Source: a virus
Virus record (IMG/VR): IMGVR_UViG_3300044833_000092
Coordinates: 3,541 to 67,540 of that record
DNA: 64,000 nt
Strand: one strand, 5' to 3'
In this document: piece after piece, positions 5,520 through 61,161 of the stretch
Layout: each line of letters begins with the position of its first letter
Position numbering within the stretch: the first letter of the stretch is position 1
Notes under the pieces: model-generated
What the model saw: only the letters and a program-made list of their open reading frames with translations
Database searches by the model: none
Told to the model about the DNA's origin: nothing
Program-made: the position numbers and the translations under genes

Positions 5520-5572
5520 GGGTGGTGGATTTCCACCACCTAGGCTATTGCGGCGCACCAATAGGAGGCAGA

Positions 5573-6319
5573 GTGGCACGGGTCAAAGCTATCGTCATCT
5601 GTACGCCGTCGCTGGGCGTCGTGTCGTTCTGGTGGGCCAGACAGATGATGAGTCTGGTTCACCCGCTCAACATCGGCAAAAAATTTGCGTTCGTCCAAGA
5701 CGACGGCGACAGCGGTGTAGCCGATACGCGCAACCAAATCGTCCATGACGTGCTGCGGATGGATAACGATACACTGGAGGTTGATTCGCTGTTTTGGGTG
5801 GACGATGACGTGCTGGTCATGCCGGGTGCGCTACTGGCCCTGTACAATCATCACGTCCCGATTGCCTCGGGCGTTTACTTTACCAAGTGCGAGCTGCCGG
5901 AGGCCCTGATCTTTCCAGGGCGATTGCACGGCACGGCCAAGTTCTATCCGAACGAGATTATCCGCGACGGCTGGGGCCACGGCATGGGCCTATGCCTCAT
6001 TAAGGCCGACGTGTACCGCAAGATGGCAGCGGCTGGCCTGGGAGTCGATCGTCACGGCAAGCCTGAGTGGTACAAGACCAGCAGCGACTTCAAGCTCGAA
6101 GGCAGCATGATCGACTGTGGCGGCACGGAAGATTTGTTCTTCCTGAACCGTGCCGGCGAGCTTGGCTACAAGACGGTCATCGATTGCACCAAGCACGCCT
6201 TTGGTTGGCACTACGACCTGAAAACTGGCCTGGGCTATCCTCAGAAGCAGTTCAACCAATGGGCGCATTGTCAGCCAATCGCTTGGGAAACCAACGACGG
6301 TCCTGTAACCTGGGAGTGA
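5573..6319 (+). CDS. GT-A fold (family 2-like) glycosyltransferase
   Basis: GTG start after AGGAGG; TRNQIV, LFWVDDDV (DxD), GMGLCLIK, TEDLFF motifs. Confidence 0.75.
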   Translation: MARVKAIVICTPSLGVVSFWWARQMMSLVHPLNIGKKFAFVQDDGDSGVADTRNQIVHDVLRMDNDTLEVDSLFWVDDDVLVMPGALLALYNHHVPIASGVYFTKCELPEALIFPGRLHGTAKFYPNEIIRDGWGHGMGLCLIKADVYRKMAAAGLGVDRHGKPEWYKTSSDFKLEGSMIDCGGTEDLFFLNRAGELGYKTVIDCTKHAFGWHYDLKTGLGYPQKQFNQWAHCQPIAWETNDGPVTWE

Positions 6320-6322
6320 GCA

Positions 6323-6853
6323 ATGGCGACCAAGAATCTGGAGAATTTTGAGACGCCCGGCGTCGTCGCTTGCACTCAGACTTCCCTGGGCATTGGCTCG
6401 TCGCGCGAATCGGCCGTCATCGACAACTCGGCGCTGCAATTTCTTGACGACGTAATTACGCTGACATTTACTATCGCCAGTGGCACGCCGTCTACGTCGG
6501 GGGCCAGTGTCAACATCTATGTCGCTGCCTCGCCGGATGGCACGCTGTTCCCAAGGGTCCAACTGCTAACCGGCGCTCCATTTCAGACTGGGGCTGGCGA
6601 CGCCTCGGTCGGAGCCTTGGGAGCGCCGAACAATTTGCGGATGATTGGCTCGTTCGGCTTGCAAACCACTGTTAGCGTTGGCGAGCGCACGTTTACCACT
6701 GAGCCCATGTCGGTCATGCAGGCGCTCGGCTACCTTCCCAAAAAGTACAGCATTATCATTGAAAATTCGACTGGCGTGGTGTTCTCTTCGTCCACCACCA
6801 CCACGGCTCAGAATCTGAACCACTCTCCGCTTTCGACCACCAGCGGCAACTGA
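6323..6853 (+). CDS. Beta-rich virion protein
   Basis: GGAG SD; Ser/Thr/Gly-rich beta-strand pattern in the virion module. Confidence 0.55.
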   Translation: MATKNLENFETPGVVACTQTSLGIGSSRESAVIDNSALQFLDDVITLTFTIASGTPSTSGASVNIYVAASPDGTLFPRVQLLTGAPFQTGAGDASVGALGAPNNLRMIGSFGLQTTVSVGERTFTTEPMSVMQALGYLPKKYSIIIENSTGVVFSSSTTTTAQNLNHSPLSTTSGN

Positions 6854-6860
6854 GGGCTCT

Positions 6861-8423
6861 ATGGTCCCGCAGGCGCTGCTTGTGGCTCCGCCAGTCAGTG
6901 TTGCCAGCGGCACGCTGGTTGGCATTGTTTCGTTCAGGGACAACTTGCGCCATCGCGTTGGCGGCGTGGTCGTCGGCGTCGTGGGCGGCACCACGGACCC
7001 GACGAGCGTAACGGACGATCAGAACAACCTCTACACGATGGTCACGTCCGCGAACGCCAGCGGAGCCATTCGTTCGTCCCTGTGGTATTGCCAGAGGATT
7101 TTCGGTTCTCCTAAGAGGATTACGGTCAAATGGCCCAGTAACGGCGCGGCCATTGTGCTGTCGGCTGTCTTTACCGATCAGCCGCTCCTGGTCACAACCT
7201 CAACAACCAATGCTGCAAACACAGGATCGTTGACGGTTGGTCCCTTGGCCGCCTCGAAGTCCGGCGAGGAATTAGTGTTCAGTGTCTGCGCCAGCAGCGG
7301 CAACCTCAACGGCGGGCCGGCAGGCTTCGTGTCTGTCAACCAGAGTGTCGCCGGTGGCTTCGGCTATGCGCTGCCGCCGAAGCGCGTCGCTACTTGGACC
7401 AATTCAGTTTCTGTTATCACCACAGCCTGTATTGCTTCCTTCCGGGCAATCCCGGTCGCAACCAATCCGTGGGCTTTCGATCCGATCGTCAAGTTTTCCG
7501 GCGGTACGCCGCCGGCTCCGCTGACAGCCTCGTACGCCGGAACGCTCACTTGGACCGGCACTTTTGTCGTTACCGGCGTCGATGCGCCATTTGGCACCAC
7601 GCTGACCTGGATGGCCACGGCGCTGCCGACCGGAGAGGACGTGGCCTATTCGGTCCTGCTCACTTGGACCGGCACGTTCGTCCTGGCCGGCGTTGATGAC
7701 TTCGTTGGTCACACGCTCACTTGGACCGGGACATTCCTGGCGGTCGGATTGGATGCCACCTGGGCAACCACGCTCACCTGGACCGGAGTGGACGCGGCAA
7801 CCGGGATCGATGAACAACCCCTGGTGACTACCTTGACTTGGACCGGGGCGTTCGCCATCACCGGCATCGATGCCACCTGGGCAACCACTCTCACTTGGAC
7901 CGGGGTGGACACAGCAACCGGCATCGATGAACAACCCTTGGCCGATACTCTTACCTGGACCGGCGCAGAAGTGGCCACTGGCGTCGATGCTCATTGGGCC
8001 ACTACCTTGACGTGGACCGGGACGTTCGCCGCCACCGGCGTCGATGCGCGGTTTGCCCATACGCTCACCTGGAGCTGGCTCATCGAGGCTAACCGTGCCG
8101 CCGAGTCCGCCGTATTTTCCCTGTTGCTCTGGAGCGACCATTTTAGCTTCGACCAGGCTCCGCGCGTGATTCTCAATTGGTTCGATAGCTTCGACATTCC
8201 AGGCGTAGTGCGGCCGCCGGCCTCGGCGTCGTTTGCCGATACGCTTACCTGGACGGAGGCGGCCGGCAGCGACTTGTCATGGTTCGATCGTTTGACGTGG
8301 ACCTCAGACCTGGGAAACCCGGTGTCGTCGGCGTTTTGGAGCGACACCTTGTTTTGGCACGACGCCAATGGCGGCTTCGATCCCAACGTCAACCTGCTTT
8401 CGACGGGCCGATACCGTCGCTAG
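6861..8423 (+). CDS. Fibre-like virion protein with TLTWTG repeats
   Basis: About ten 19-20 aa TLTWTG...G.D repeats; C-terminus FDPNVNLLSTGRYRR. Confidence 0.65.
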   Translation: MVPQALLVAPPVSVASGTLVGIVSFRDNLRHRVGGVVVGVVGGTTDPTSVTDDQNNLYTMVTSANASGAIRSSLWYCQRIFGSPKRITVKWPSNGAAIVLSAVFTDQPLLVTTSTTNAANTGSLTVGPLAASKSGEELVFSVCASSGNLNGGPAGFVSVNQSVAGGFGYALPPKRVATWTNSVSVITTACIASFRAIPVATNPWAFDPIVKFSGGTPPAPLTASYAGTLTWTGTFVVTGVDAPFGTTLTWMATALPTGEDVAYSVLLTWTGTFVLAGVDDFVGHTLTWTGTFLAVGLDATWATTLTWTGVDAATGIDEQPLVTTLTWTGAFAITGIDATWATTLTWTGVDTATGIDEQPLADTLTWTGAEVATGVDAHWATTLTWTGTFAATGVDARFAHTLTWSWLIEANRAAESAVFSLLLWSDHFSFDQAPRVILNWFDSFDIPGVVRPPASASFADTLTWTEAAGSDLSWFDRLTWTSDLGNPVSSAFWSDTLFWHDANGGFDPNVNLLSTGRYRR

Positions 8424-8456
8424 GGAGACAGGTGGTGGAAATCCACCGCCCTTGAA

Positions 8457-9374
8457 ATGGCGCTCCTTCCCGTACAAGCCAGCGTGGGCACCACCGGCAC
8501 CGGAACGGTCCGACCGACCGTCTTTCCGTCAACGGTGACGAGCGGCAATGGCGTGGTGGTTCTGGTGTCCTATGGTGCCAATACCTTAACGTCGATCACC
8601 GACACTGAGGGCAACGCCTATTTGCTGGCCGGCGTCGGTAGCTTCTTCGGAGCCGATCTGGCGGCCATCTACTATTGCGCCAACGTCACCGGCGGCCCGG
8701 TCTTTACGGCTACGGCCCACTTCTCTTCTTCAACGCCAGCCGAAATTATTGCCTTCGAGGTTCCTGGCAACCTGACTCTCCAGGCCGCCAATGCGTCCGC
8801 CGGCAACAGCGTCAATCCCGCTCCAGGCGCGGTCAACACTGGAGTCGTCAATACGCTTGTCTTTGTCGTTCTCAACAAGACCGGCTCCGTCATTACGCCG
8901 CCGGCTGGCTTCACCGAGGCTCGCAACACTGGCACGTCAGACGCTGCCTATAACCCCTATGCCACCGTGCAGGTGGGGCTCGATCCGCCCTGGTCAACCA
9001 CGGCCGGCACGCCCTGGGCCGCGGCGATCGCAGCCTTCTCGTCCACCGCAGGCGTCGGGCCGGCAACCGGCTTGGTGTTTGGAAACCTTACATTCTCGGG
9101 CTCATTCACCTTTGAGCCCGTCCTGGGCAACCTGCTGCGCTGGACGGCCTTCTTCGTCACCGGCGCTCCGATTGTGGCTAACGCTTCTTGGAGCGACACT
9201 TTGACCTGGAGCGTCAGCGCCATCAACGACTTGAACCTCAAGGATTTCATCCTGTGGACCGGGGCTAAGTTTGGCTTGGCCGAGTCGTACGACCGCCTGA
9301 CTGATACACTCTCATGGGCAGGGCGGTTCGAGCCAGACGTGAACTTGCTGGCGGCCGGCAGGTACAGGAGGTAG
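8457..9374 (+). CDS. Fibre-like virion protein, paralog of 6861-8423
   Basis: TSITDTEGNAY vs TSVTDDQNNLY; DTLTW repeats; C-terminus FEPDVNLLAAGRYRR. Confidence 0.65.
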   Translation: MALLPVQASVGTTGTGTVRPTVFPSTVTSGNGVVVLVSYGANTLTSITDTEGNAYLLAGVGSFFGADLAAIYYCANVTGGPVFTATAHFSSSTPAEIIAFEVPGNLTLQAANASAGNSVNPAPGAVNTGVVNTLVFVVLNKTGSVITPPAGFTEARNTGTSDAAYNPYATVQVGLDPPWSTTAGTPWAAAIAAFSSTAGVGPATGLVFGNLTFSGSFTFEPVLGNLLRWTAFFVTGAPIVANASWSDTLTWSVSAINDLNLKDFILWTGAKFGLAESYDRLTDTLSWAGRFEPDVNLLAAGRYRR

Positions 9375-9376
9375 GC

Positions 9377-9580
9377 ATGGTCAGCGTTGAAGAACGCATA
9401 CGCCAGCTCAAACAGGTGCCGCTTCTGGAAATCGAAATCGCCCGACTCAAGATTGAACTTGCCAGGGTGCAGCAGCGCCGCTGCGAGCTATGCCGGGAAA
9501 ACCAACAGCTCAAGACAGGTGGTGGAAATCCACCACCTGCTTCCCTTCGTGAACGAACGACGATGGCGGAGAATTTGTAA
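9377..9580 (+). CDS. Small coiled-coil protein containing motif A in frame
   Basis: AGGAGG SD; heptad-like IRQLKQ..LEIEIARLKIELARVQ. Confidence 0.55.
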   Translation: MVSVEERIRQLKQVPLLEIEIARLKIELARVQQRRCELCRENQQLKTGGGNPPPASLRERTTMAENL

Positions 9581-9694
9581 TGGGAAAAGGCCGTCCGCAC
9601 AACTTGGTTAACTTCAGCACGGACGAACTTATCGCCGAAATTAGAAAGCGAGGGGTGGAAAATTCCTAATTTATTTGCTGAAACCCCGGATGAC

Positions 9695-11986
9695 GTGGTT
9701 CTCATTGCCGATGGGTGGGGTCCAGTGTTGCGCTGGAACGGCTTCACCAATCAGGCGAGCCCGGCCGGCGTGCCGGCTCCGTCCAAGCTGCCGACCATGA
9801 CATTCTCCGGCACCGGCCCTATCGTCGGCGCGTACCGCTGCTTTCTGCGCTACATCGACGCCAACGATTACCCCGGCAACCTGACGCCCATCGCCCCGGC
9901 TGACGTGATTGCCCTGTCCCGCTCCGGTGTAGTCGCCAAGGCTGTGGCTGGCACGCCGATTGTATTGACCATCACGGCTCACGGATTCAATAATTCGACC
10001 ACCATCAAGACGACGGGCATCGCCGGCATCGTGGAGGCCAACGGCGTTTTCAAGGTGACGGTCATCGATGCCAACAATATCTCTCTCAACGGTTCGACCG
10101 CCGACGGGCTCAGCGAGTTCTACGGCGGCGGCGGGACTTGGATCGCCGGCACCGGCTTGGTGACGTACGGCAATCTGGAGGCTCCAGCGGACCCGCGAGT
10201 GGTGCGCCGTCAGATACTCCGCAACACCGATGGCCAGGAAGCGGTGTTCTACGTCGATATCGACACCACCGACCTGTCCAGCGCTACTCTTACCAGTACC
10301 CAGGACGACAACGCGCTCCAGACGGGCATCGCCGTGCCTTTTCTCGACTCCACTGGCAAGGACGTTTCCAATGTCAATGGCGAGCCGCCTAACAACAAGC
10401 CCTTGATCGTCTATCATCGAGGATTGGTTTTTATGGCTGGCGACGTGCGTTACACCGAGGGCGCTGTTGCCTTGACGTTCGGCTCCAATCAGGTGCATGG
10501 TATTGCAACGGAGTGGCGAGCGGCCGCGGCTGGCCGCTTCATCTACGTCGTCGGTGCGAACAAGGCGTACACGATTGCAGCCGTGGACGAGTTGAATCAG
10601 ATCGTCACCCTGACAGAGCCGTACCTTGCACCGTCGCAGCCGTACGCTTTCTATGCCATTTGTTCGGCCGAGCCGGATCAGCGCACCGTCTACTATTCCG
10701 ACGCCAGCCACGCCGAGGGCTTCTCGCCGCTTGTCGGCTTTACCATCGCCTCCGACGGCGACGACTTCACCGGCGAGTTGTCCTACGATTCGTTCCTCTA
10801 CATTCTGGAACGCTCGCATATCTACAAACAGACGTATCAAACCGATCCCAACACAGACGGTGCCGTCTACCAGAGTTCCGATCGCGGCTGCGTCAACCAG
10901 CGCTGCGCCGTTAAGGCGGGTGAGAGCGTCTACATGCTGGACGAGAAGGGCATTCACGCCTTTGGCGGCCGCAACGCCGGCGATCGCAGCGATCCGGTGC
11001 AGACGCTCTTTCGCCCAGACGTGCCGGGGCCGAAGATCAACTTCGCGGCGGGCCGTTTCTTTCACGGTGTCTTGGATCAGACGACCGAAGTTATACGCTG
11101 GTTCGTTTCGCTCTCGGGAACCTATCTCCCCCGCCACGCCATTTGCTATCAATACGATCTTGACCGCTGGTGGATCGAGGAGTATCCGTGGCCGATATCC
11201 TGCTCATTCGTCGGCCGCCTCTACCGCCGGGCTCCGCTGGAGACGTGGGGAGCCGGGCGCTTGCAGGTATTCCTGGGCTCGACCGGCCGCCGCGTGTTCG
11301 CCGTTGGAGCTTCGCCGCTCGACGGAGTGCCACCACTCAAGGAGTACGCCTGCCCCATCACGACCGCCGGGTTTAACTGGTTGGAAACGCCGTCAGCGCT
11401 GCCGCCGTGCGTCAATGCTCCAGTGGTGATTGTCGGCGGCCGTGGCAAAGGACAGCGGCGCATTGTGGTCTCTATGTCGGGAACGAGACTGCGCCTGCGC
11501 GATCCGTGGCTGGTGCAGCCCGACGTGACCAGCACCATTCAGGTTGGCGGTATCGAGTGGAGCTGGAAGTCTGGCTGGATGGAATGGGCTGACGAAGAGA
11601 CGACCAATCCGCGAGCGGTGGAAGTATCTTTCGGGCCTACGACGGTGCCCAGCGACGTGACCTTGAACCGCTTCCGTGACCGTAGCGATCAGGCTGACGT
11701 GATTGCTCTTGACCGTGCCGAGGACGGCGTGTTGGCTCGGGCCGGCGAGAGTGACGTATTGCTCTCGTTGGAACAGTTGCCGGGTGGCTTCGGACAGGCC
11801 CTGATGTTTTCGGGAAAGCAGTCGTACACTCGTGGGCCACAGGTTATCAGTGTGGGACTCAATGGTGTTGGCACCATCGATCCGGTGAAGCTCTATCAAA
11901 TCGACGTTGACGGCGTTGTCGATCCGACTGGAATCATTCCCGATCGTCAGCTGCGCCGCCAGGGCGAAGGCGGGGGAGGGGGATAG
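9695..11986 (+). CDS. Nozzle / DNA stabilisation (tail tubular B-like) protein with inserted beta domains; start uncertain
   Basis: Beta-propeller-type motifs (YHRGLVFMAG, VYYSD, DRGCVNQRC, VYMLDEKGIHAFGG, WSWKSGW); TAHGF...EANG FCCH-like insert. Confidence 0.7.
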   Translation: MVLIADGWGPVLRWNGFTNQASPAGVPAPSKLPTMTFSGTGPIVGAYRCFLRYIDANDYPGNLTPIAPADVIALSRSGVVAKAVAGTPIVLTITAHGFNNSTTIKTTGIAGIVEANGVFKVTVIDANNISLNGSTADGLSEFYGGGGTWIAGTGLVTYGNLEAPADPRVVRRQILRNTDGQEAVFYVDIDTTDLSSATLTSTQDDNALQTGIAVPFLDSTGKDVSNVNGEPPNNKPLIVYHRGLVFMAGDVRYTEGAVALTFGSNQVHGIATEWRAAAAGRFIYVVGANKAYTIAAVDELNQIVTLTEPYLAPSQPYAFYAICSAEPDQRTVYYSDASHAEGFSPLVGFTIASDGDDFTGELSYDSFLYILERSHIYKQTYQTDPNTDGAVYQSSDRGCVNQRCAVKAGESVYMLDEKGIHAFGGRNAGDRSDPVQTLFRPDVPGPKINFAAGRFFHGVLDQTTEVIRWFVSLSGTYLPRHAICYQYDLDRWWIEEYPWPISCSFVGRLYRRAPLETWGAGRLQVFLGSTGRRVFAVGASPLDGVPPLKEYACPITTAGFNWLETPSALPPCVNAPVVIVGGRGKGQRRIVVSMSGTRLRLRDPWLVQPDVTSTIQVGGIEWSWKSGWMEWADEETTNPRAVEVSFGPTTVPSDVTLNRFRDRSDQADVIALDRAEDGVLARAGESDVLLSLEQLPGGFGQALMFSGKQSYTRGPQVISVGLNGVGTIDPVKLYQIDVDGVVDPTGIIPDRQLRRQGEGGGGG

Positions 11987-11988
11987 CT

Positions 11989-12669
11989 ATGGGCATAGAG
12001 TCTTTTTTCGGCGCTCAGGCCGATCGCTTGCTCCGCAAAGAGTGGGGTGACGACGTGGACAGTTTCGCGCAGGAACTGGTGGCCATGTTCACGTCTAAGG
12101 AACCGATCAACCTGACCGGACCTGTGACAATCGATCGTGGGAACGCCGACAATGTTCCGGCACTCACGATCAACGATGGTACTAACGGCAGCTCAGCGCC
12201 GATCGTCATTAATCGTACCGATGGCACCGGCTCGTCGCAGCCAAACGTCGATAGCGGCGGCGGCTATTCATGCTGTGGCTCCAGTTCGCAAAATGCTCCT
12301 CCCAAGATGCCGCCGGTCGATCAAGGCAAATTCCCGCCGGTTCCACCTGTGACGCCGGCTGGACCTCCGGGCGGTCTGCCTGATCCCAACATGCCCAGGC
12401 GTGAGTTTAGCGGCACTATCCTGATAAAAGTCGTGCAGGGCGAGCCGGATGTCTTCGGCTGGAATGGTCAACAGGTGCCGTTCATAGCTACGGGCTGTGT
12501 CCCGTACAAGCCGCCATCGGTGAATGGCCCAACGAGTGCTTTCGATCCTAGCCTGAATCAGCCCGAGCCCGTCACGGCGCAGCTGGCGGCGTTCATGGCA
12601 AAGTGGAGTCTCGACGGTTACGATCTCATCGCCGACACCGTAGCCGGTCCCGGTTCTCCTTGTGCTTAG
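11989..12669 (+). CDS. Hypothetical virion-module protein
   Basis: SD and tight packing after the nozzle-like gene. Confidence 0.55.
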   Translation: MGIESFFGAQADRLLRKEWGDDVDSFAQELVAMFTSKEPINLTGPVTIDRGNADNVPALTINDGTNGSSAPIVINRTDGTGSSQPNVDSGGGYSCCGSSSQNAPPKMPPVDQGKFPPVPPVTPAGPPGGLPDPNMPRREFSGTILIKVVQGEPDVFGWNGQQVPFIATGCVPYKPPSVNGPTSAFDPSLNQPEPVTAQLAAFMAKWSLDGYDLIADTVAGPGSPCA

Positions 12670-12734
12670 GGCGAGCCGGACTATAATCTCAGGGGTGGTG
12701 GAAATCCACCACCTGAAAAACCAGGGGGCGTGCC

Positions 12735-13457
12735 ATGCCTTATGCGAATGTTGGTTCAGTCGATCCGATGCCGTACGCTGGCTCGGTACAACAGATGTCT
12801 GATAACTTTATGCCGAGTCTGCAAGGTCAGGCCAATCAAATGAATGCCAGCCGCGGAGGCGGAGGCGGAGGAGGCGGCGGCGGGGGCGGCTTGCCCGGCG
12901 TCGGGGCCGGCGGTTTCGTACAGAAAACATTTGAGAACCAGTACGACAACCCTGGGCTCGACCTTCAGAAGGCCCAGCTTGCTGCGTCCAACGCCCACTG
13001 GAACGCCGCCTTCGGCGCTCTTCAGGGTCAGCTTGGCGCTGGTGGACAACGCTTCTCGCCGGCGGCCGGCCTGGGACCGCATATCACCACCGGCGGCGTT
13101 TGGAACCCGCAGCAGGTGGATCAGCAGGTGAACGCTGCTCGGGCCAAAAACGATCAGACGGCGGCCACGCAAAGTCGGGCCGCTGCCCAGGGCGCTGTTG
13201 GCCGTGGCTTCGCCGGCAACTCGCCCATGATCGCGGCGCTCCAGGGCCAGATAGGCGGAGCGAACATTGCCGCCGACGCTTCCAGTGAGGCCGGCATCCG
13301 CAGCAACGCCGCGCAAATGAACGCGAACCAGACGCTGAGTTCGCAGACCGAGGCTCAGAACCAGTTCGCTGCCCAGCAAGCTCAAGAGACGCAACGGACT
13401 GCGCCGCTCTACGCCCGCCAGAACGCCTTGATCGCCGCCCTGGCCGGCATTGCCTGA
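12735..13457 (+). CDS. Ejection / DNA pilot-type internal virion protein
   Basis: Ala/Gln/Gly-rich helical protein with GRGFAGNSPM; position typical of podovirus core proteins. Confidence 0.55.
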   Translation: MPYANVGSVDPMPYAGSVQQMSDNFMPSLQGQANQMNASRGGGGGGGGGGGGLPGVGAGGFVQKTFENQYDNPGLDLQKAQLAASNAHWNAAFGALQGQLGAGGQRFSPAAGLGPHITTGGVWNPQQVDQQVNAARAKNDQTAATQSRAAAQGAVGRGFAGNSPMIAALQGQIGGANIAADASSEAGIRSNAAQMNANQTLSSQTEAQNQFAAQQAQETQRTAPLYARQNALIAALAGIA

Positions 13458-13487
13458 ACTATTGGTGCGCCGCAATAGGAGTCTATC

Positions 13488-14813
13488 ATGCCGGTTCCGA
13501 TTCAGACACTAAACCCCGACCAGCAACCACTCTGGCCGCAGGCGCAAAACTCTCCAGTCGGCCCGGATCAACAGCCGCTTCGCGGTCCACGCGATCCGCG
13601 CGAGGCGGTTATGAGTTACGGCCGGAGCGCCGAGGACTTAGGGGCTCCCGGCGCTCCGCTTGCGCCGCCCGCAGCGCCGCCGGCGGCACCGGCCCCGGCG
13701 GCGGCAGCGTCTCTGGCCGCAGCCGGCGGCCCCATGACGATCTACAACGGCACCAACCGGACCGACGTGAACTTTCAACCGGCCGCCGGCGGCGGCGTGC
13801 AGGCGCAATCGATGACTGATCCCAACACCGGGGCGGTGTTTCAGCGCAGTCCCGCCGGCGGCTGGACGGTGCCGGGAGCCGGCGGCCCTGGCATGAGTTT
13901 CAACGATGCCCAGGCAGGAATCCAGGGTCAACAAGCCCAGCAGACGCTCAACCTGAACCGCGGCTTCCTGCCGAGTAACATGCAAGCCGGCATGGATCAG
14001 ATTCTCCAGGGGATGCCGCCCGACATACGCAACACGCCTGGGGCCAGGGGCATGGCGATGGAGCAGATGAACAAGCAGGTTGGCCAGAATCAGGATTGGG
14101 CCAAGATCGGCCTAGGCCAAGGGGAATTGGATATCAAAAACCGCGGCCTCACCGAGGCTACCGATCCGATGAAGGTGCTGCGCCAACAGGCCGCGATCGC
14201 CATTGGCCACGCTCCCGACAAAGCCAATGAAATTCTCCAAGGCATGAACACCGCGATGGAGTCCAAGATGGGCCAGCGCGTCTTGGGAGGGGGAGTGGGA
14301 CCAATGCCCGGTGTTGGCCCGGCCGCCCCTGGCGTTGGCGGGCTCGCTCAGCCGGGCGTCAGTCAAGCCCCTGGGCAGTTGCCGCCGACGACGCTGGCTG
14401 GTGCCAATCCGGGTGCAACGCCGCGCAACAAGTTTGACTTGCAGAACGAGCAGGACGCGGCGTTCGGTCCGGAGTTGTCCGCGTCCGTGAGGGAGAATCC
14501 CACGATCGCCAATGGTACAGCGACGTTTCCAACATCAACGGCGGCGCTGTTGCAACAGGCGTATGTCTACGATCAGCAGCATCCAGGCTTCATGCAGCAG
14601 CACGGCAAGGCTTTGTTGGCCGCCATACGACAGCGGCGCGGCATCAACTCTCCCGAAGAAACTGCGGGCGCTATGGGCAAGACTTATGGCGTTCTCGGCT
14701 ATCCGTTGCTTGGAGATACGACTCCAGAAGACAAGGCTGGCGGCGCTTGGCGAGACGCCCTGGGCATGAAGAACGGCTTGCTCGGCAGTCGTGGTTCAGG
14801 TTTCCTCAAGTAG
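13488..14813 (+). CDS. Ejection-type internal virion protein
   Basis: AGGAG SD fused to motif B; low-complexity Gly/Gln/Ala/Pro. Confidence 0.55.
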   Translation: MPVPIQTLNPDQQPLWPQAQNSPVGPDQQPLRGPRDPREAVMSYGRSAEDLGAPGAPLAPPAAPPAAPAPAAAASLAAAGGPMTIYNGTNRTDVNFQPAAGGGVQAQSMTDPNTGAVFQRSPAGGWTVPGAGGPGMSFNDAQAGIQGQQAQQTLNLNRGFLPSNMQAGMDQILQGMPPDIRNTPGARGMAMEQMNKQVGQNQDWAKIGLGQGELDIKNRGLTEATDPMKVLRQQAAIAIGHAPDKANEILQGMNTAMESKMGQRVLGGGVGPMPGVGPAAPGVGGLAQPGVSQAPGQLPPTTLAGANPGATPRNKFDLQNEQDAAFGPELSASVRENPTIANGTATFPTSTAALLQQAYVYDQQHPGFMQQHGKALLAAIRQRRGINSPEETAGAMGKTYGVLGYPLLGDTTPEDKAGGAWRDALGMKNGLLGSRGSGFLK

Positions 14814-14829
14814 CAGAGCAGGTGACACG

Positions 14830-15285
14830 ATGCCTAATTCTAACATTCCTCAAGCGCCGCCTCACGCCTTGCCGCCGGGCGGCAGGTTCGTTGAGCCTCC
14901 GTCTGCCGGCGGTCGGGTCATTCAACGATCGGCCGATGGAGGTTCCGTCAATGTCACGATGCCTGACGGCACGCTGCATCAGTGGGATGCAAGCGGCCCG
15001 CGGGGCTCGGCCGGCCGATACTTGGGCTCCTCTGACGGCGGCCAGCCGCAAGCTGGCCAGACTCAGTTGCCGTCGCCGCCAGCTGAAACCCAAGATCAGC
15101 AATTGACCCGCTTGGCGGCTTATCAGTTTGGCACCGCTAACAGATACTTGGCGAACGGGCCGCGTGTGCCGGGTCCGAGCGATGCGACTCTCGATGCCAA
15201 TGCTGCTGGCTTATGGGACAAGGCGTTCGCGGCGGTTCCGCTGCAATTGAATCCGGCAGCGTTTGGCCTCGGAGGACCACAGTGA
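14830..15285 (+). CDS. Hypothetical protein
   Basis: AGGTG SD; in operon. Confidence 0.5.
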   Translation: MPNSNIPQAPPHALPPGGRFVEPPSAGGRVIQRSADGGSVNVTMPDGTLHQWDASGPRGSAGRYLGSSDGGQPQAGQTQLPSPPAETQDQQLTRLAAYQFGTANRYLANGPRVPGPSDATLDANAAGLWDKAFAAVPLQLNPAAFGLGGPQ

Positions 15286-15366
15286 TGGCAGAAGAGAGTC
15301 AGTGGCTGACGAACCCACGATCGTCCAGTTTCAGGGTGGTGGAAATCCACCACCTGACCGGGAGGC

Positions 15367-15573
15367 TTGAGCGTGAACTACTGGATTCTGTTCGCGGTCG
15401 CCCTGGCCGGCATTCTCTTTGGGGATGCGATAGGCATGTACAGCGAGCGGCGGGCATGGAAGGCCCGCGGCGCTGGCAACGACATTGGCTCGCCCCACTA
15501 CTGCGACGGAACGCTGTACTACGTCATCCGGTCACAGGTGTTCAACGATCGGTGTATTGTCAAAGTGCCATAA
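15367..15573 (+). CDS. Small membrane protein
   Basis: GGAGG SD; N-terminal TM helix WILFAVALAGILFG. Confidence 0.55.
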   Translation: MSVNYWILFAVALAGILFGDAIGMYSERRAWKARGAGNDIGSPHYCDGTLYYVIRSQVFNDRCIVKVP

Positions 15574-15588
15574 CCAAGGAGCCTCTCG

Positions 15589-16143
15589 ATGCCGCTTCCT
15601 CCGTTTCCTCCCGGTATGCCTCCCCCAGGTATGCCTCCTCCCGGTATGCCTCCTCCCGGTATGCCTCCTCCCGGTATGCCTCCTCCCGGTATGCCGCCGC
15701 CGGGCATGATGCCGCCAGGGCTGGGGCCGCCGCCCCTGGGGCCTCCCGGTATGCCACCGCCTGGAATGGGTGGCCCTCCAGGGATGGGTGGCCCGCCTCC
15801 AGGCATGGGCGGCATGGGTGGCCCACCGATGGACCCGGCGCTTATGGCGATGCTGGCGTCTATGCCGCCCGACGACGGCCCCGGTGGCGAAGCCGGCGGG
15901 ATCGGCGGCATGGACGGCTCGGGCATCGGCCCTCCCGGCTCGGGCGGCCAGCCGATGGACCCGGCGGTCCTGCAAATGATCGAGCAACTGATCGGCCCTG
16001 GCGGCCCTGGCGGCCCCGTACAGGGGCCTCGCGGTCCGGCGGGCATTCCCCCAGGCCCGGCCCCTCCAGGCCAGGGACAGCCAACCAGTGCGTGGCAACA
16101 GGCCCTTATGGGACTCGGGGCAGGGCCAGGGCTTGGCCGCTGA
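15589..16143 (+). CDS. Pro/Gly/Met-rich protein with GMPPP repeats
   Basis: AAGGAG SD; 15-bp tandem repeats about 15607-15705 with synonymous variation. Confidence 0.65.
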   Translation: MPLPPFPPGMPPPGMPPPGMPPPGMPPPGMPPPGMPPPGMMPPGLGPPPLGPPGMPPPGMGGPPGMGGPPPGMGGMGGPPMDPALMAMLASMPPDDGPGGEAGGIGGMDGSGIGPPGSGGQPMDPAVLQMIEQLIGPGGPGGPVQGPRGPAGIPPGPAPPGQGQPTSAWQQALMGLGAGPGLGR

Positions 16144-16209
16144 CCCCCATATTTGCCAGCGCCACGCGACGATCTCCCTTGGGGGTAGCCTTGGCGTCCT
16201 CCAAGGGAG

Positions 16210-16238
16210 AAGTCGCGCCATAAGCGATCCTGGCGCAA
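16210..16238 (+). repeat. 29-bp element E (AAGTCGCGCCATAAGCGATCCTGGCGCAA), copy 1
   Basis: Identical to 60590-60618; 24/29 inverted copy at 41203-41231. Confidence 0.9.
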
Positions 16239-16265
16239 CTGTGGGCATGTTAAGATGGGTAGAAT

Positions 16266-16673
16266 ATGGGAGTGGAACCGGCGATCGCCGAATCAGTGTG
16301 TGGCTTTTGCCAACAAAAGTTCATTCATCGCGTCGGTGAGCCACGGCGGTTTTGTTCGCCTGAGTGCCGCAGAGCAGAGAAGGCTTTGCAGCAATCCGTA
16401 AAACTGTCAAGTGGCAGCGCTGGCGCGGTTAATGAGCTTATCGTTTCGGCTGATCTGTTGCGTCGCGGATATCATATCTTCCGGGCGATTAGCCCAAGTT
16501 GTCCGTGCGACTTAGTGCTACTGCACGGCGGCCGATGTTGGCGAGTTGAGGTTACGACCGCCTACGAAAATATGGACGGCAGGATCGTTGTTACCAAGCA
16601 TAAGCCGGACAGATATGATATTATCGCCGGCGTACTGCCTGACGGCACGATTCATTATTCGTCGTTGCCATAA
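16266..16673 (+). CDS. Zn-finger PD-(D/E)XK endonuclease (homing-endonuclease-like)
   Basis: CGFC...FCSPEC; GAVNELIV...GY.IF...CDLV...RVEVTT; more AT-rich codons than neighbours. Confidence 0.75.
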   Translation: MGVEPAIAESVCGFCQQKFIHRVGEPRRFCSPECRRAEKALQQSVKLSSGSAGAVNELIVSADLLRRGYHIFRAISPSCPCDLVLLHGGRCWRVEVTTAYENMDGRIVVTKHKPDRYDIIAGVLPDGTIHYSSLP

Positions 16674-16723
16674 GGGTGGTGGAAATCCACCACCCTATTG
16701 CGGCGCACCAATAGGAGTTTTCT

Positions 16724-19700
16724 ATGTCGGTTGACTTCGACTCTCTCGTCGCCGATCCGTTCACTTACATCCGCAACAAACAAGCGATGGATCAACAGGC
16801 GGCCGCGGAACAGGACGCTGCCAACAAGAGCGCGATCGCGCAGCCGATGGGCCCGCAAGAGCAAGACGGTTTGCTCAAGCAGATGCTCGGGGCCGGAGCC
16901 TCGGGCCTGGGCTTCGTCGGCGGCACGCTCGGCAAGCTCTTCGGCGGCCGTGCCATCCGGGCCGGGCTCCAGGGCCTGACCGGCGGACCCATGAACTGGC
17001 GGGAACTGGCCAGCGTGATCCCCGGCTCCGACATTACCGGCCTCACCGATCCGGAACAGACCGTCACTGGCCGCAACCTGCTCGATCAGTGGGGCATGAC
17101 TTCGCCGACGACTCAGGACCAGCGCGGCACGTTCCAGTTGTCGGACCTGGCTGGCCCAGCCGTCGAAGCGGCCCTGGACCCGGCGACCTACCTGGCCTTC
17201 GGCGCTGGGGCCTCGACCAAGGCGGGACAGGCGGCCGAGCGGCTCGGGGTGCTGCCCAAGACGACGGCGGCCCGGATCGCCGGCTACACAGCGCCGGAGC
17301 AGATTGCCGCCAAGATGGGCATGACGCCGGCGGCCGCGGCTGCAAAAGCGGCCGAGGTTGGCGTCGATCTGAAGAGTCTGGTCGGCAAGCCGCTCGGCGG
17401 ACTTGTCGGCTTAAAATTGCCGTTCACGACGGCCGCGGATTCCGGGGCCATTCTCGGCACCGGCCCCTGGGCGCAGAAGGCGGCCGAAACGATCGGCACG
17501 CCATTCAAGTGGCTCGGCTCGACCAGGGCGGCCGACTACGCTCGGGCCATGTTCAACCCGGAGGCGCAGGGTCAGCCGTACGCCAGCACGCAAGCGGAAC
17601 TGATTGCCCAGGCCCCGTACACACGCACCGCCGGCGAGAACCTGCGGCGTGGGATCGGCGAGGCATACGATCCGCTCTTGGACTTCCGGGCCGCCGGTAC
17701 GCTGCCGCCGGAGTATGCTCCGATGGTGCGCGGCGCTGCTGAGGGCTTCGGCGTCCCAGGCCCGCAGCTTGAGGGTGTGAGCGATGCCATCGCCCAAGCG
17801 GCCGCCCAGGCGAGCGCCTTGAAGGATGCCGCTCGCCAGCGCTTCGAGTCCGCCGGCGGCCAGATCAGTTCTTGGGGCAGCGTGTTCCCAGACGTGCAGC
17901 ACTTCCCACGCTCGCCGACTCCGCTCGAAGTGCAGAGCCCCATCTTCCGCGGCAGCGGTCCTACGGAGAACCTGGGCAAGCAGTTCTACGCCGGCGTGCC
18001 CAACGCCATCCAGCGCAAGGATATTCTCGACTTGCCGGGCGGCACCGCTCAGGTCAACGAGTTGGTGCGGAACCCGGCGATCGGCACCAGTGCCCGCACC
18101 ATCGGGGCCGCCCCCGGCTCGCCGCTCGACAAGCTTATGAACGTGCCCGGTCACGCCGACGCCATCACCGCCAAGCTCCAGGCGGCTATGGGAGCTTTCG
18201 CCCCGGCCGACCAGTTGCAGATGCAGGCGCTCATGGCGGCCGACAAGGCGGGCTCTTTGGCCCCGGCCGACGCCGTGATCCTCGACGGGCTCCGCAAACA
18301 GTATCTGGCCAGCCGCGCTGCGATGATGGGTACGATCCGCGAGGACGTGCTTGGCATGAAGCCGGTGGACGTGACGCAATTGCTGGCGCTACGCAAGGCT
18401 CCTGGCCCACTGACGGCCGCGGACGCGGCCCGCTTGGCTGAGCTGGAAGGTATGGAGGCGAACGCCCGCATGATCGGCGGCCGCATGAGCCGCATGTATG
18501 CCGAGCGGGCCACTGGCACCCTGGGCGATCCGGCGGCCGATATCATCCCCGGCGTCAGTAGGAGCTTGCAAGACCGGGCGGCCGAAGAGTACCTGCGCTC
18601 GCAAGTGTTCCAGCTCGATCCGCAGCGGCTCGCCGAGTTGACCAACGAGGCCGGGCTCGATCCTGGCAGCGTGGCCGCCTGGGCCTCCTCGAAGCCTTCC
18701 GAGCGGGCCGCCACTCTCCAAGGACTCCAGATGCCGGGTAAGTCTGGCGTCGGTAATCTCATCAGCGAGACGGGTAGGATACTTACGCCGGCGGAGGCGC
18801 AGGAGCTTCTTTCGTCCGGCCACTTGGATCGCATCGCCCGGCCGCTGGCCAAGTACCTTGGCCAGCTCGATCCGCAGCGGCAGACGCGCGGCCTGTTCTC
18901 CAACGATCCGTTCTCCGACTTGCTCCGATACGGCGAGTCGATGGTCAAGGGCACTGAGAAAGCCGACGTGGTGACGAACGTGCTGGGCCGCAACGCTGCC
19001 TTCGGCGGGGCTGGCAACGTCAAACTCCAGCCGCTCTTGAAGGAGTTGAAGCTCAATACGCCAGTGGCGCAAGCCAGGATCATGGAGCAGATGAATGCCG
19101 CCGGCGGCTTGCCCGGCGGCGTTGCCGGCAAGCTCGGGGACATTGGCAAGGCCAGGGTGAGTCCGCAGATTGCCGAGGCCATTCAGGCGCTCAACCCGCG
19201 CACCAAGATGCCGGAGTACATCAAGCCGACGCTCGCGGCCATCGATCAGGCCACCGGGGCCACCCGCGCCGCTCTGACCTATCCCTGGCCGTCGTTCCAC
19301 GTCCGCAACCTTGTGACCGATGAAGTCAACTCTCTGATGCGCGTTGGACCCGGCGGCATCAAGTGGGGGCCGACGGCGCAGGCGCTGAGCCAGGGCAAGA
19401 ACCCCGAAGCGCTGTTGAGTCTGCCGATGATCCAGCGGCTGGGCATCACAGACCCGGCCGAAGCGGCTCGTGTCGTTGGCCGCGAGGCGTTCGCTACCCA
19501 GGCGTTCGGCCGCGGCCAGGGCCGGCTGACCACTGAGGGGATGCAGTCGGCCGAGCGTGGCATTCTGCCGGCGATCCCCGGCGCGATTCCTTCGGCATCC
19601 CTGGCCGACATTGGCAGCGGCAAGGTACTGCCCAAGGATTGGAGCTTCAACCCGGCCAGGACCGAGGGCATCCTTGGCCAGACCGAGACGAAGTTTGCTC

Positions 19701-21394: not shown

Positions 21395-21432
21395 CCTTCC
21401 TGTTGGCCTTCCTATTGGTGCGCCGCAATAGC

Positions 21433-41445: not shown

Positions 41446-41465
41446 GCGGATGACAGTAAGGCCGC

Positions 41466-43558: not shown

Positions 43559-43617
43559 GGCCGGCAGGGCCGGCAGGGCCGGCAGGGCCGGCAAGGCCGG
43601 CAGGGCCGGCAAGGCCG
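43559..43617. repeat. 9-bp tandem repeat GGCCGGCA(G/A), about 6.5 copies
   Basis: Directly visible. Confidence 0.9.
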
Positions 43618-49440: not shown

Positions 49441-49587
49441 ATCCTATTGCGGCGCACCAATAGCCAAGGTGGGATCGAGCAATGAGCGGCAAATTGAAAA
49501 TGTCAAGTATCAAACAGGCGTACAAGCAGGCAAGAAAAAGCCTGAAGAACCGCCTCAAGAAACTAAAGCTCATCAAGGAGGCGTTTA

Positions 49588-49821
49588 ATGATCGGCCAGC
49601 CACGGAGCCCGCACCATCACTTTCCGCCGACGCAAATCGGACAGACGTTCCCGCACAGCAAATGGACGGTGATAGGCGAGCAGTATAAGATCAACGACTT
49701 CGTGTGGGTCGTGCCAGTACAATGCAAGTGCGGCACCAAGGCGGCCATCCCGCGCCAGCGCCTGTTCAAGGGCCTCTCACGCAGTTGCGTGAAGTGTGCC
49801 CGCAAGAGAGGTTGGAGGTAG
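49588..49821 (+). CDS. Small Zn-ribbon protein like HNH-associated N-terminal domains
   Basis: IGQTF...KWTVIG...QCKCG...SRSCVKC; GGAGG SD. Confidence 0.6.
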   Translation: MIGQPRSPHHHFPPTQIGQTFPHSKWTVIGEQYKINDFVWVVPVQCKCGTKAAIPRQRLFKGLSRSCVKCARKRGWR

Positions 49822-53636: not shown

Positions 53637-53730
53637 TTTCAGGTGGTGGATTTCCACCACCCCTCCGCGGCCAGCCTATTGCGACGCCGCAATAGGCTGG
53701 CCGTTTCCTTACCCAATCAAGGAGTCAACC

Positions 53731-59808: not shown

Positions 59809-60344
59809 TGCTCAAACGTGACGAGATTACCAATCCAAACAGTTGCTGGAACAAGGCCCGCGAGGACGAGCGCTTGTTCATCCTTCTGGACCGCGACGAT
59901 GCAATGGCAGATACGATACAATTCTGGATCAACAAACGGATCGAGCTTGGCAAGAACAAGCCAGGCGATCCGAAACTGGTCGAGGCTGAAGAGTGCATCC
60001 GCCTCATGGCGTCGGAACGCGCCACGCGCGAAGCGATGAGCCACAAGCTGTTGAAGGAAGGAGGCAGGCAAGTAATGGCAACGATACAAGAGCGCCGCGA
60101 GGAACACGAAAAGCGATTTCCAAACACGACGGTTGTTGATATCTGCTTCATGGTGCGCGACTTTACGCGGGGAGATAGCTGCCACGGTGCCGACTGGTTT
60201 CTCGTGGCCATTAGATTTCTCAAGATGGTCGATGAGACGTGGATGCAACCAGTGCCCGAGGACATGGAGTTCGACTCCAGCGTACGCCGACTGGTCAAGG
60301 CGGCGATCGGCTACGCACCTCCAGGGGGGCGGACCAATGGCTGA
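59808..60344 (+). CDS. Conserved phage hypothetical protein
   Basis: SCWNKAREDERLFILLDRD motif. Confidence 0.65.
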   Translation: MLKRDEITNPNSCWNKAREDERLFILLDRDDAMADTIQFWINKRIELGKNKPGDPKLVEAEECIRLMASERATREAMSHKLLKEGGRQVMATIQERREEHEKRFPNTTVVDICFMVRDFTRGDSCHGADWFLVAIRFLKMVDETWMQPVPEDMEFDSSVRRLVKAAIGYAPPGGRTNG

Positions 60345-60582
60345 GGACGCTGGCCTGGAGTCGCTCTTTACCGTCTCGCCCAGGCGGCGGGTCCAGCACT
60401 TGCTGGAGATGGTTGAACGTGCCCGCAACCATCACCCGCGGACCGCCCGCTTCGTCCTGGCCGGCGTCATTGCCACCGTGGACCCTGAGACGCTGACAGC
60501 GGTAGCCGAGGCGATGGCCGACGCTTTGCGCAAGCGTGCGTACAAGCTCGTTTCCCAGGAGAATGAGGAAATGAGCCCATAA
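60337..60582 (+). CDS. Hypothetical protein
   Basis: In operon. Confidence 0.5.
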   Translation: MAEDAGLESLFTVSPRRRVQHLLEMVERARNHHPRTARFVLAGVIATVDPETLTAVAEAMADALRKRAYKLVSQENEEMSP

Positions 60583-60589
60583 AGCCCAC

Positions 60590-60618
60590 AAGTCGCGCCA
60601 TAAGCGATCCTGGCGCAA
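60590..60618 (+). repeat. 29-bp element E, copy 2
   Basis: Identical to 16210-16238. Confidence 0.9.
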
Positions 60619-60839
60619 TGGCTGGGGCCATTAGATAGCGGCATTTAATTCAGTGGCAGGTGGTGGATTTCCACCACCCTGGGGACAATGACATGATGCG
60701 GTTCCCACGAATGCCCGGCTGCGAGACGGGCTGGGAAAGCCATCTCGCATGGGCGGTGGCATTCTGCACGCTGGCGTGGGCAGCAATCTCGTTCGTGGCT
60801 GTGACGGCCTGGGTAGTCTTTCACTGGTGAGGTAACGCT

Positions 60840-61136
60840 ATGAGATACCGCAGACGCAAACCGGCCGAGATCGAGGCGTTCCAGATGACCAAGGAGCGCA
60901 GGGCTGACAACCGCGACTGGCCGGAGTGGCTGAATAAAGCGTGGAACAAACCTTCGACAGCCCACGGTGCCGTGTGGCCCTCCGGTCCTCGAACAGACAA
61001 AGGTTACTTGGTGGCCGATACGCCCGAGGGCTCGCTGACTGTCGGTTGGGATTGGTGGATCGTTTTTGTCGTTGCCACGGGCGAGCTACAGGTAATGAGT
61101 CCGGAACGCTTCGAGGCAAACTACGAGCCGGTCTAA
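60840..61136 (+). CDS. Conserved phage protein
   Basis: MRYRRRKPAEIEAFQ...TPEG...FEANYEPV; GAGG SD. Confidence 0.75.
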   Translation: MRYRRRKPAEIEAFQMTKERRADNRDWPEWLNKAWNKPSTAHGAVWPSGPRTDKGYLVADTPEGSLTVGWDWWIVFVVATGELQVMSPERFEANYEPV

Positions 61137-61161
61137 TGCGGCGCACCAATAGGAGGGAACC

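Follow-up and report, generated by a model that had tools for sequence, protein, structure and literature searches.

A 20-bp near-palindrome repeated at gene junctions of an uncultured phage and often continuous with the Shine-Dalgarno sequence

The virus record IMGVR_UViG_3300044833_000092 is a single phage sequence of 67,540 bp, of which bases 3541-67540 (64 kb) are here called the window; positions below are those of the window unless stated otherwise. Throughout the window a 20-bp near-palindrome of the form CTATTG-N8-CAATAG, which we call motif B, recurs between genes, and at ten places its last two bases are also the first two of the Shine-Dalgarno (SD) sequence of the next gene. Motif B probably serves as a control site throughout the genome; sites of this type have been seen in a few other phages and explained in none. 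We tentatively prefer to see in it a site recognised by a dimeric, sequence-specific regulator that acts at the junctions between genes.

A search with CTATTGCGGCGCACCAATAG, allowing up to three mismatches, gave 28 strand-matches that correspond to 24 distinct sites, four of them matching on both strands. Dinucleotide shuffles gave 0.01 matches on average. The 24 copies and all the coordinates listed for them in a sequence-only reading of this DNA were thereby found to be correct. Half of the copies (12 of 24) are exact 20-mers, eight in one orientation on the plus strand and four in the other, and no copy was found in the 3,540 genome bases beyond the window.

Genes were called with a simple program using codon usage and SD sequences; at least two likely genes, 16266-16673 and 31533-31937, escaped it. 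About 95 genes were called, most of them without family assignment. Genome bases 1-71 (about 70 bases) are repeated near the contig end, at approximately 63900-63970 of the window, indicating that the record is circular or terminally redundant. The genes form a rightward block, running from 44152 across the contig join to 20614, and a leftward block at 20617-43370. All 24 copies of B are intergenic, while positions outside called genes make up 10.8% of the 20-mer positions of the genome. The leftward block, with 33.7% of the genome, holds 18 of the 24 (P=4e-5), and almost every gap longer than 30 nt in this block contains B, a second palindrome described below as motif A, or both.

Ten of the 24 copies end 8-12 nt upstream of a called start codon, a location shared by 3.9% of intergenic positions (binomial P=8.5e-9), so the proximity to starts that the sequence-only reading had described holds against a positional background. 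These copies are at 5545, 13459, 16695 and 61133 on the plus strand and at 33788, 36383, 37638, 38064, 39991 and 40799 on the minus strand. In nine of them CAATAG is followed by GAG(G/T), and the AG of B thus opens an AGGAG(G) SD sequence; at 39991 it is followed by GGGG. The same reading had counted eleven such fusions. Ten are at called starts; the eleventh, at 35485, is not a confirmed gene start, because only a five-codon open reading frame (ORF) follows it and no ORF of at least 50 aa occurs for about 230 nt. Two of the fused starts are supported by PHROG profiles, whose alignments to the proteins starting at 5573 and 36371 open at residue 2 or 3. Fusion was also said to be indifferent to the direction of the asymmetric core, and the ten starts are divided 5:5 between the two orientations relative to the gene.

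In six of the ten fused cases the entire intergenic gap is just 25-53 nt. The other four (16695, 33788, 39991 and 40799) are flush with the SD sequence despite called gaps of 104-679 nt, although the gap at 16695 is overstated because the likely gene 16266-16673, missed by the caller, ends just before the adjoining motif A. Motif B is as strongly stop-proximal as it is start-proximal: 14 of the 24 copies are situated from -4 to 13 nt past the upstream stop codon, compared with 14% of intergenic positions (P=5e-7). The individual copies are as follows.

5545-5564, plus strand: exact, SD-fused; 8 nt to the GTG of gene 5573-6319; motif A (5521-5540) is 4 nt to the left.
13459-13478, plus strand: exact with reverse core, SD-fused; 1 nt past a stop and 9 nt to the ATG of gene 13488-14813.
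16695-16714, plus strand: exact, SD-fused; directly adjoins motif A (16675-16694); the ATG of gene 16724-20614, which encodes 1296 aa, follows after 9 nt.
21412-21431, minus strand: exact, not SD-fused; 1 nt past a stop and 26 nt (17 to an alternative ATG) upstream of gene 21122-21385.
26554-26573, minus strand: exact; 10 nt past a stop, followed in the mRNA by motif A (26523-26542) and then an SD sequence.
30230-30249, minus strand: class II, core CGGCACCG; 8-bp stem with 4-nt loop, -9.2 kcal/mol; a TAG stop directly before it and motif A after it.
31259-31278, minus strand: class II; complementary flanks add 7 bp to make a 15-bp hairpin with B at its tip, -29.2 kcal/mol; a start follows after 35 nt.
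32713-32732, minus strand: exact; 7 bp of flank complementarity giving a 13-bp stem, -27.8 kcal/mol; 36 nt to a start.
33788-33807, minus strand: exact, SD-fused; 10 nt to the GTG of gene 33493-33777; a GC-rich hairpin and TTTT upstream.
35485-35504, minus strand: exact; 3 nt past a stop, followed by GGAGAG, an ATG and a 5-codon ORF.
36383-36402, minus strand: exact, SD-fused; 3 nt past a stop and 11 nt to the ATG of gene 35508-36371 (GAGTTATTCGCATG).
37638-37657, minus strand: variant with 3 mismatches, SD-fused; 9 nt to the ATG of gene 37017-37628.
38064-38083, minus strand: variant with 2 mismatches, SD-fused; 11 nt to the ATG of gene 37666-38052.
39263-39282, minus strand: class II, core CGACGCCG; 1 nt past a stop, then motif A (39233-39252).
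39558-39608, minus strand: two degenerate copies (39558-39577 and 39589-39608), inverted, forming a perfect 21-bp hairpin, -43.6 kcal/mol.
39991-40010, minus strand: exact, fused to an SD sequence of GGGGG type; 11 nt to the ATG of gene 39620-39979.
40799-40818, minus strand: exact, SD-fused, in an intergenic gap of 679 nt; 12 nt to the ATG of gene 40463-40786.
41069-41109, minus strand: two variants in tandem (41069-41088 and 41090-41109) that directly adjoin motif A (41049-41068), where the leftward block begins with a long non-coding region.
42894-42913, minus strand: variant with 3 mismatches, in a 423-nt non-coding region beside GGCCGGCCC hairpins.
49444-49463, plus strand: exact; 3 nt past a stop, 18 nt to an ATG at 49482 and 124 nt to the called gene 49588-49821.
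53676-53695, plus strand: class II; tip of a 17-bp hairpin with 8 bp of flank complementarity, -34.5 kcal/mol; 35 nt to a start; motif A is 14 nt to the left.
61133-61152, plus strand: variant CTAATG, SD-fused; contains the TAA of ORF 60840-61136, the upstream stop that this variant had been suggested to accommodate; 9 nt to the ATG of the 67-aa gene 61162-61365.

The contigs of the source sequencing run break at the inverted doublet 39558-39608. Behind the copy at 35485, the transcribed strand of 35255-35484 (about 230 nt) has no ORF of at least 50 aa and no Rfam match; this stretch could be a leader or a small RNA.

When the copies were aligned in the direction of transcription, the column-majority consensus was a perfect palindrome, CTATTGCGGCGCCGCAATAG, which is present in none of the 24. 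The canonical half, CTATTGCG, is present at least once in each copy, and the deviations fall in the opposite half or at the centre. A CG...AC core is found in 15 copies, 12 of them exact. The four class II copies (30230, 31259, 39263 and 53676) have both CG halves and a single transition in the central GCGC, and fall into two identical pairs, 30230 with 31259 and 39263 with 53676. The remaining copies are single variants.

The perfect palindrome would include the hexamer GGCGCC, which occurs once in 67.5 kb, outside the window, compared with 41.4 expected occurrences. Palindromic hexamers are avoided generally in this genome: 24 of the 64 are absent, 18 of these with expectations of 5-38, and nine more are present at less than a quarter of the expected number. 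Examples are GACGTC (0 versus 37.6 expected), GTCGAC (0 versus 25.1), CCCGGG (0 versus 21.8) and GGGCCC (1 versus 33). No comparable depletion of 4- or 5-base palindromes was observed in the genome. Such extreme avoidance points to hosts rich in six-cutter restriction systems, and the asymmetric core of B is best read as the cost of avoiding the restriction-type site GGCGCC; the direction of the core would then be arbitrary. We did not find a link between imperfect symmetry and restriction avoidance described for repeats of this kind, in a literature search that was not aimed at it. If one avoided hexamer does explain the imperfection, the evolution of a regulatory site would be linked to restriction pressure. 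The retention of a 20-bp palindrome family in a genome that purges palindromes makes positive selection on B likely, and the argument for selection is extended by the survival of a second such family, motif A.

Departures from the consensus are not compensated. Over the six arm pairs of the 24 copies there are no compensatory changes and seven departures that leave a pair unmatched, and the covariation score of the whole family (0.106) does not exceed the mean of shuffled alignments (0.125). The transition variants at 37638 and 42894 would give A.C or C.A oppositions in the mRNA sense, not G.U. Arms and core are conserved alike, the bases that would form the loop of an RNA hairpin being conserved as much as those that would form its stem.

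These properties can be accommodated by a regulator that would be a nucleic-acid-binding protein, probably dimeric and most likely phage-encoded. Its ideal site would be the two-fold symmetric CTATTGCGGC|GCCGCAATAG, and the real copies would keep one canonical half-site while the other half or the centre is spoiled, because the perfect site would contain GGCGCC, a hexamer not tolerated in this genome. By occupying double-stranded DNA immediately ahead of the SD sequence, the factor may block or time expression of the downstream gene as an operator or roadblock. With sites at junctions genome-wide, one factor would control many cistrons at once, mainly in the leftward block, taken to be the early/replication block, and at a few rightward genes. 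If it binds all 24 sites, this factor would be a compact switch for a phage regulon.

Three features argue for such a factor: the identity of 12 copies at every one of the 20 positions, even those that would be left unpaired in an RNA hairpin; AT-rich arms in a genome of 62% G+C; and dyad symmetry combined with equal use of both orientations at fused starts. Together with the lack of compensation, they favour a trans-acting factor over a purely structural hairpin. We infer that a protein binds, that its target is DNA rather than RNA, and that its effect is repressive. A dimeric DNA-binding regulator is ranked first since the precedents for dispersed sites, compared below, are DNA-binding repressors, and since an absence of compensation was the argument used for the extended start-associated sequences (ESAS) of Cluster K mycobacteriophages.

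Several observations weigh against this proposal. No DNA-binding protein could be named for it from Pfam, PHROG and PDB searches of the phage proteins. A roadblock on DNA does not need to be flush with an SD sequence, yet B is flush in gaps of 104-679 nt (33788, 39991 and 40799). The 7-8 bp of flank complementarity at three copies and the inverted doublet would form hairpins or cruciforms, which binding to duplex DNA does not require. Avoidance of GGCGCC leaves the two-base change from CG to AC unexplained, as one change would suffice. No conserved promoter was found upstream of B, either in the 25000-44500 scan or in the sequences upstream of the copies. Finally, lysogeny is not established for this phage, so an immunity repressor is not assured.

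The searches for a binder covered 90 called proteins. At E<=0.001, Pfam gave no helix-turn-helix domain beyond what the resolvase and ParB_N proteins may carry. Pfam and PHROGs, applied to the 90 proteins and to the ten proteins behind B, named no regulator; ten further small proteins searched against Pfam at E<=1 gave nothing; and no regulator was named by PDB sequence searches with the 372-aa and 1296-aa proteins or by an Atlas search with the 372-aa protein. The proteins that were recognised include a T4-type large terminase (Pfam PF03237), an SU10-type portal, a head-protein-like gene product, two helicases, a primase, methyltransferases, the ParB_N protein, an Erf/Rad52 annealing protein and a 324-aa serine recombinase. 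Rfam gave no families and ARAGORN no tRNAs.

We also searched for B outside this phage. The exact motif had no match in IMG/VR. A degenerate form matched six single-copy sites in 185,579 species genomes, all in unrelated bacteria and at chance level, and together these two results indicate that B is not a host repeat or a widespread one. In IMG/VR the degenerate form matched 15 contigs, 12 of them from one unrelated lineage (L016-L024 and L027-L030; 52-55% G+C). Members of this lineage carry two or three 20-bp palindromes resembling CTATTGACGCGCGTCAATAG, about 320-600 bp apart. The palindromes (for example at 7141-8082 of L022) overlap the -35 element of a sigma-70-like promoter, TTGACG-17 nt-TACATT, and are accompanied by a 26-bp perfect palindrome and an SD sequence downstream, ahead of a leftward gene. 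We treat the resemblance of CTATTGACGCGCGTCAATAG to B as coincidental, because no matching -10 element follows B in the phage.

Close relatives of the phage were absent from the phage, IMG/VR, metagenome and species-genome collections queried. Window positions 5000-20000 by megablast and the portal by tblastn gave no match in 50,697 phage records, and the major head protein had none in IMG/VR. Large terminase searches aligned three metagenome and five IMG/VR loci, at 39-44% identity only, and motifs A and B are absent from all eight. The nearest terminases (P0002-P0009), at 59-67% identity, are known as proteins only. A soil metagenome is the only sequencing run found to contain the phage sequence and is possibly its source; its contigs over 26000-44000 represent the source assembly and repeat-induced joints and nothing else. 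For 33000-42900 no RNA sequencing run containing the sequence was listed. One distant terminase relative (L003) has clustered TAGCA(T/G)(T/A)TGCTAC palindromes at 21-bp spacing (3551-3716), which look iteron- or operator-like, and has no genome-wide repeat resembling A or B.

Motif A has the form GGTGGTGGA(AA/TT)TCCACCACC and is present in 30 copies in the genome, 29 in the window (1850-62956) and one at genome base 2498; the window gave 52 strand-matches where 0.03 were expected. As RNA it would form an 8-bp stem with a 4-nt loop (-14.4 kcal/mol). By the simple gene caller, 24 of the 30 copies are intergenic, typically 13-34 nt upstream of a start, and in eight of the 30 the flanks extend the palindrome by 3-6 bp. 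A perfect version would include GAATTC, which occurs once in the genome compared with 8.4 expected. The exact motif had no match in IMG/VR. Motifs A and B are neighbours, 0-16 nt apart, at 5521/5545, 16675/16695, 26523/26554, 30194/30230, 39233/39263, 41049/41069 and 53642/53676. In all seven pairs A is to the left of B on the plus strand, in both gene blocks, and the order thus follows the genome and not transcription (two-sided sign test, P ~0.016).

The sequence-only reading had proposed that B is an operator or an RNA hairpin exerting genome-wide control, an interpretation that is partly supported. Its RNA version, in which B acts within the transcript as an intercistronic element beside the ribosome-binding site, is similarly tentative and ranks close behind the dimeric regulator. 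The element could be the target of a translational repressor, for which T4 RegA and the gp43 operator are analogues, a site of RNase cutting that gives each cistron its own 5' end, or an insulating or stabilising 5' hairpin. Since B is palindromic, RNA from either strand would have the same stem and orientation would not matter. The AG of B is that of the SD sequence at ten starts, including four with called gaps of 104-679 nt that leave room elsewhere, and the position of 14 of the 24 copies next to stop codons, against the 14% background, places B within polycistronic transcripts.

Distance from the start also grows with hairpin stability. Class I copies of B (about -4 kcal/mol) are 8-12 nt from the start, motif A (-14.4 kcal/mol) is mostly at 13-34 nt, and the extended B hairpins (-28 to -35 kcal/mol) are at 35-36 nt. 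The flank extensions of 7-8 bp at 31259, 32713 and 53676 differ from one another in sequence and exceed the control (P(n>=5)=0.002), and the doublet hairpin, at 21 bp, has the length that an enzyme of RNase III type would need.

Folding and conservation speak against an RNA-level role. The exact 20-mer as RNA gave -3.8 or -4.2 kcal/mol, depending on the strand (z-scores -0.9 and -0.7), and 34 and 44 of 200 shuffled sequences folded as well; the fused form therefore folds no better than shuffles. The class II form, with its 8-bp stem and 4-nt loop, reaches -9.2 kcal/mol, and none of the four class II copies is SD-fused compared with ten of the other 20, a difference that is not significant (Fisher P=0.11). 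A minority of copies therefore has genuine hairpin potential, and in the SD-fused majority this potential is weak. Covariation is lacking in the arms and in the family (0.106 versus 0.125), the variant arms could not form wobble pairs in the mRNA sense, conservation is as high in the would-be loop as in the stem, and no Rfam family matches. Because the site is symmetric, the DNA-dimer and RNA-hairpin readings predict opposite outcomes for compensatory arm mutants, and B exists naturally in weak- and strong-hairpin forms.

A further proposal, which we consider unlikely, treats A and B together as phage-wide punctuation, with B a 20-nt mRNA operator through which one phage repressor shuts off a regulon. 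The repressor would be a RegA-like global one with a long, symmetric, high-information site shaped by restriction-site avoidance. Self-complementary transcripts of B could then pair in trans, and the doublets at 39558-39608 and 41069-41109, together with the ORF-less stretch after 35485, could serve as RNA regulators of the B-fused starts.

Somewhat less likely again is that B marks the boundary of a mobile regulatory cassette or is a recombination linker, cassettes arriving with B and an SD sequence in the manner of the PeSLs of T4-type phages. Such a role could be compatible with an operator or RNA role. The 12 identical copies and the two class II variants, each found twice in identical form, suggest copying rather than independent origin. 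Motif B flanks consecutive small genes without assigned function at 35485-41109, genes for an annealing protein of Erf/Rad52 type and for a 324-aa serine recombinase are present in the phage, and PeSLs end in an SD sequence and start codon and mediate shuffling (PMC2839356). However, 20 bp is short for homologous exchange, similarity stops at the edges of B with dissimilar flanks, the promoter that defines PeSLs was not found at B, there are no target-site duplications, no relatives showing cassette exchange were found in the collections queried, and a linker alone leaves the dyad symmetry unexplained.

There is little likelihood that B is functionless, that is, a selfish or mutationally self-extending palindrome tolerated in spacers, with its SD contacts following from tiny gaps. 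Six of the ten fused gaps are only 25-53 nt long, so that B must touch both neighbours there, and templated quasi-palindrome correction could have produced the flank extensions. Against this, 24 copies of B and 30 of A are kept where hexamer palindromes are purged, B is flush with the SD sequence in four called gaps of 104-679 nt (that at 16695 being overstated), and no REP/RAYT- or IS200-type transposase was among the Pfam matches.

Least probable of the proposals weighed is that B is or contains a promoter for phage-directed transcription, the mRNA beginning at the SD sequence just after CAATAG. A conserved 20-mer directly upstream of many genes that ends in ATAG|G would suit this, as the ends of T7-type promoters resemble ATAG|G; the hairpin and TTTT just upstream of B at 33788 would, if an efficient terminator, oblige the downstream gene to have a new transcription start; and the similar palindrome CTATTGACGCGCGTCAATAG of the unrelated IMG/VR lineage lies over a -35 element (TTGACG). 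However, the symmetry of B would make such a promoter fire in both directions, Pfam and PHROGs recognised no RNA polymerase family in the 90 proteins, no -10-like hexamer is at the right distance from the TTG of B, and 13 of the 24 copies have no start within the next 12 nt. A scan of 25000-44500 for sigma-70-like promoters, whose consensus may not be that of the host, gave three compared with 3.9 in shuffles, and none at B.

Other candidates were tried and rejected. A LexA-type or other host operator was discarded because B is not repeated in any scanned species genome, and a sigma-54 or sigma-70 promoter inside B because the necessary -12 or -10 element is missing. An attC or integron-like site was excluded, the only recombinase in the Pfam tally being of the Resolvase (serine) family, as was a miniature inverted-repeat transposable element, there being no target duplications. 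An intrinsic terminator was likewise rejected: no T-run follows B, and B is absent from the 20 terminator-like sites found in a scan that itself performed no better than on shuffles.

Other repeated sequences were noted in the window. The word TTCGCATG occurs six times in the genome, always on the minus strand (31935, 36369, 38050, 39196, 40784 and 43368), and each copy ends in the start ATG of a leftward gene, usually as GGAG-N3-5-TTCGC-ATG. It is a second start-associated word; three of its copies are behind a B and three are not. The sequence TTATGGGACAAT(G/A)G is found on the minus strand upstream of leftward genes at 33873-33886, 40053-40066 and 41333-41346, and more weakly at 38300-38313, with seven matches at up to three mismatches compared with 2.8 expected. 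Two of its copies are 43-66 nt upstream of an SD-fused B, and it may be a promoter element of the host.

The region 41300-43610 contains six or seven GACAGGGCCGGCC-type words and short tandem GGCAGGGCC repeats in long non-coding stretches. These surround the point where the two gene blocks diverge, and the region could be an origin or control region. At 15606-15760, where no gene was called, a 15-bp CCTCCCGGTATGCCT-like repeat is present in at least six tandem copies and would encode a Pro-Gly-Met-Pro repeat. At 62330-62370, four or five tandem copies of CAGACATG follow a hairpin and A/T runs in a 462-nt non-coding gap.

Comparison with known repeats placed B beside several systems. The repetitive extragenic palindromes (REPs) of host chromosomes and the mosaic elements they compose (BIMEs) are intergenic imperfect palindromes inside operons, often past stop codons and sometimes paired, a layout that B and motif A together resemble. 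REPs form stable G+C-rich hairpins, and some families are tied to a RAYT transposase. In contrast, the class I form of B folds weakly, and B is not repeated in the 185,579 species genomes.

PeSLs have been proposed as recombination linkers in T4-type phages (PMC2839356). Like B, they are repeated intergenic motifs that end in an SD sequence and start codon and are found among small genes without assigned function (PMC2839356). They differ in length, at about 100 bp, and in combining a strong sigma-70 promoter with a terminator in the form of a G/C stem-loop, whereas B is 20 bp long with no promoter consensus and no T-tract. A stable stem-loop is seen only in class II and flank-extended copies of B (-9.2 to -34.5 kcal/mol), and is weak in the exact 20-mer.

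The phages phiC31 and L5 have 18-30 repressor sites dispersed over their genomes (PMC4557955). In L5 these stoperators block elongation (PMC6550527), and in both phages the dispersed sites silence transcription genome-wide (PMC6550527, PMC4557955). Like B they are conserved sites, 18-30 or more per genome, and most are not at promoters. Stoperators, however, are 13 bp long, asymmetric, bound by a monomer and oriented with transcription (PMC6550527), whereas B is symmetric and independent of orientation. They are bound by the phage immunity repressor; in the present phage no repressor was identified by Pfam or PHROGs.

The Cluster O phages carry more than 30 copies per genome of a 17-bp palindrome, TGTTCGG-NNN-CCGAACA (PMC4351075). 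It shares with B the many copies, invariant arms, a central asymmetry independent of transcription and an unexplained function. This sequence had no match here at up to two mismatches. Furthermore, 20 of the 34 sites in phage Corndog are within ORFs, and no SD fusion is reported (PMC4351075), whereas all 24 copies of B are intergenic.

The layout of B is most like that of the start-associated sequence (SAS) and ESAS pair of Cluster K, with which the sequence-only reading had aptly compared it. The SAS, GGGATAGGAGCCC, is found 3-7 bp upstream of starts (PMC3203893), and as of 2025 no mechanism had been shown for SAS or ESAS (PMC12699233). The Cluster K pair and B each recur in 11-19 or more copies per genome, stand a few bases ahead of start codons, and are concentrated in the non-structural part of the genome. 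SAS and B both include the AGGAG of the SD sequence and have the junction heptamer ATAGGAG in common. ESAS and B are both inverted repeats directly before the SD sequence with departures that are non-compensatory, which led Pope et al. to judge ESAS a DNA-binding site rather than an RNA hairpin (PMC3203893).

There are also clear differences. SAS is a 13-bp asymmetric sequence used in one orientation at starts, whereas B is a 20-bp near-palindrome used in both, and 14 of its 24 copies are not at starts. ESAS comprises imperfect 17-bp repeats separated by 4-13 bp, while the arms of B are 6 bp long (8 bp in four copies) around a centre of 8 or 4 nt. At up to two mismatches the SAS consensus had two matches here (23011 and 54655, both in genes), compared with 1.89 expected, and none at starts. 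The phages concerned are unrelated, as are the hosts. Motif B is thus not a member of the SAS/ESAS family, and it belongs equally to none of the Cluster O palindromes, stoperators or PeSLs. Short repeats placed at gene junctions over a whole phage genome have been known from a few actinobacteriophages in culture and from T4-type phages. In the present case a similar layout, built from a different, symmetric sequence, is seen in an unrelated soil phage that is uncultured, and this suggests that a conserved site flush with the SD sequence is a recurrent phage solution and not an oddity of Cluster K.

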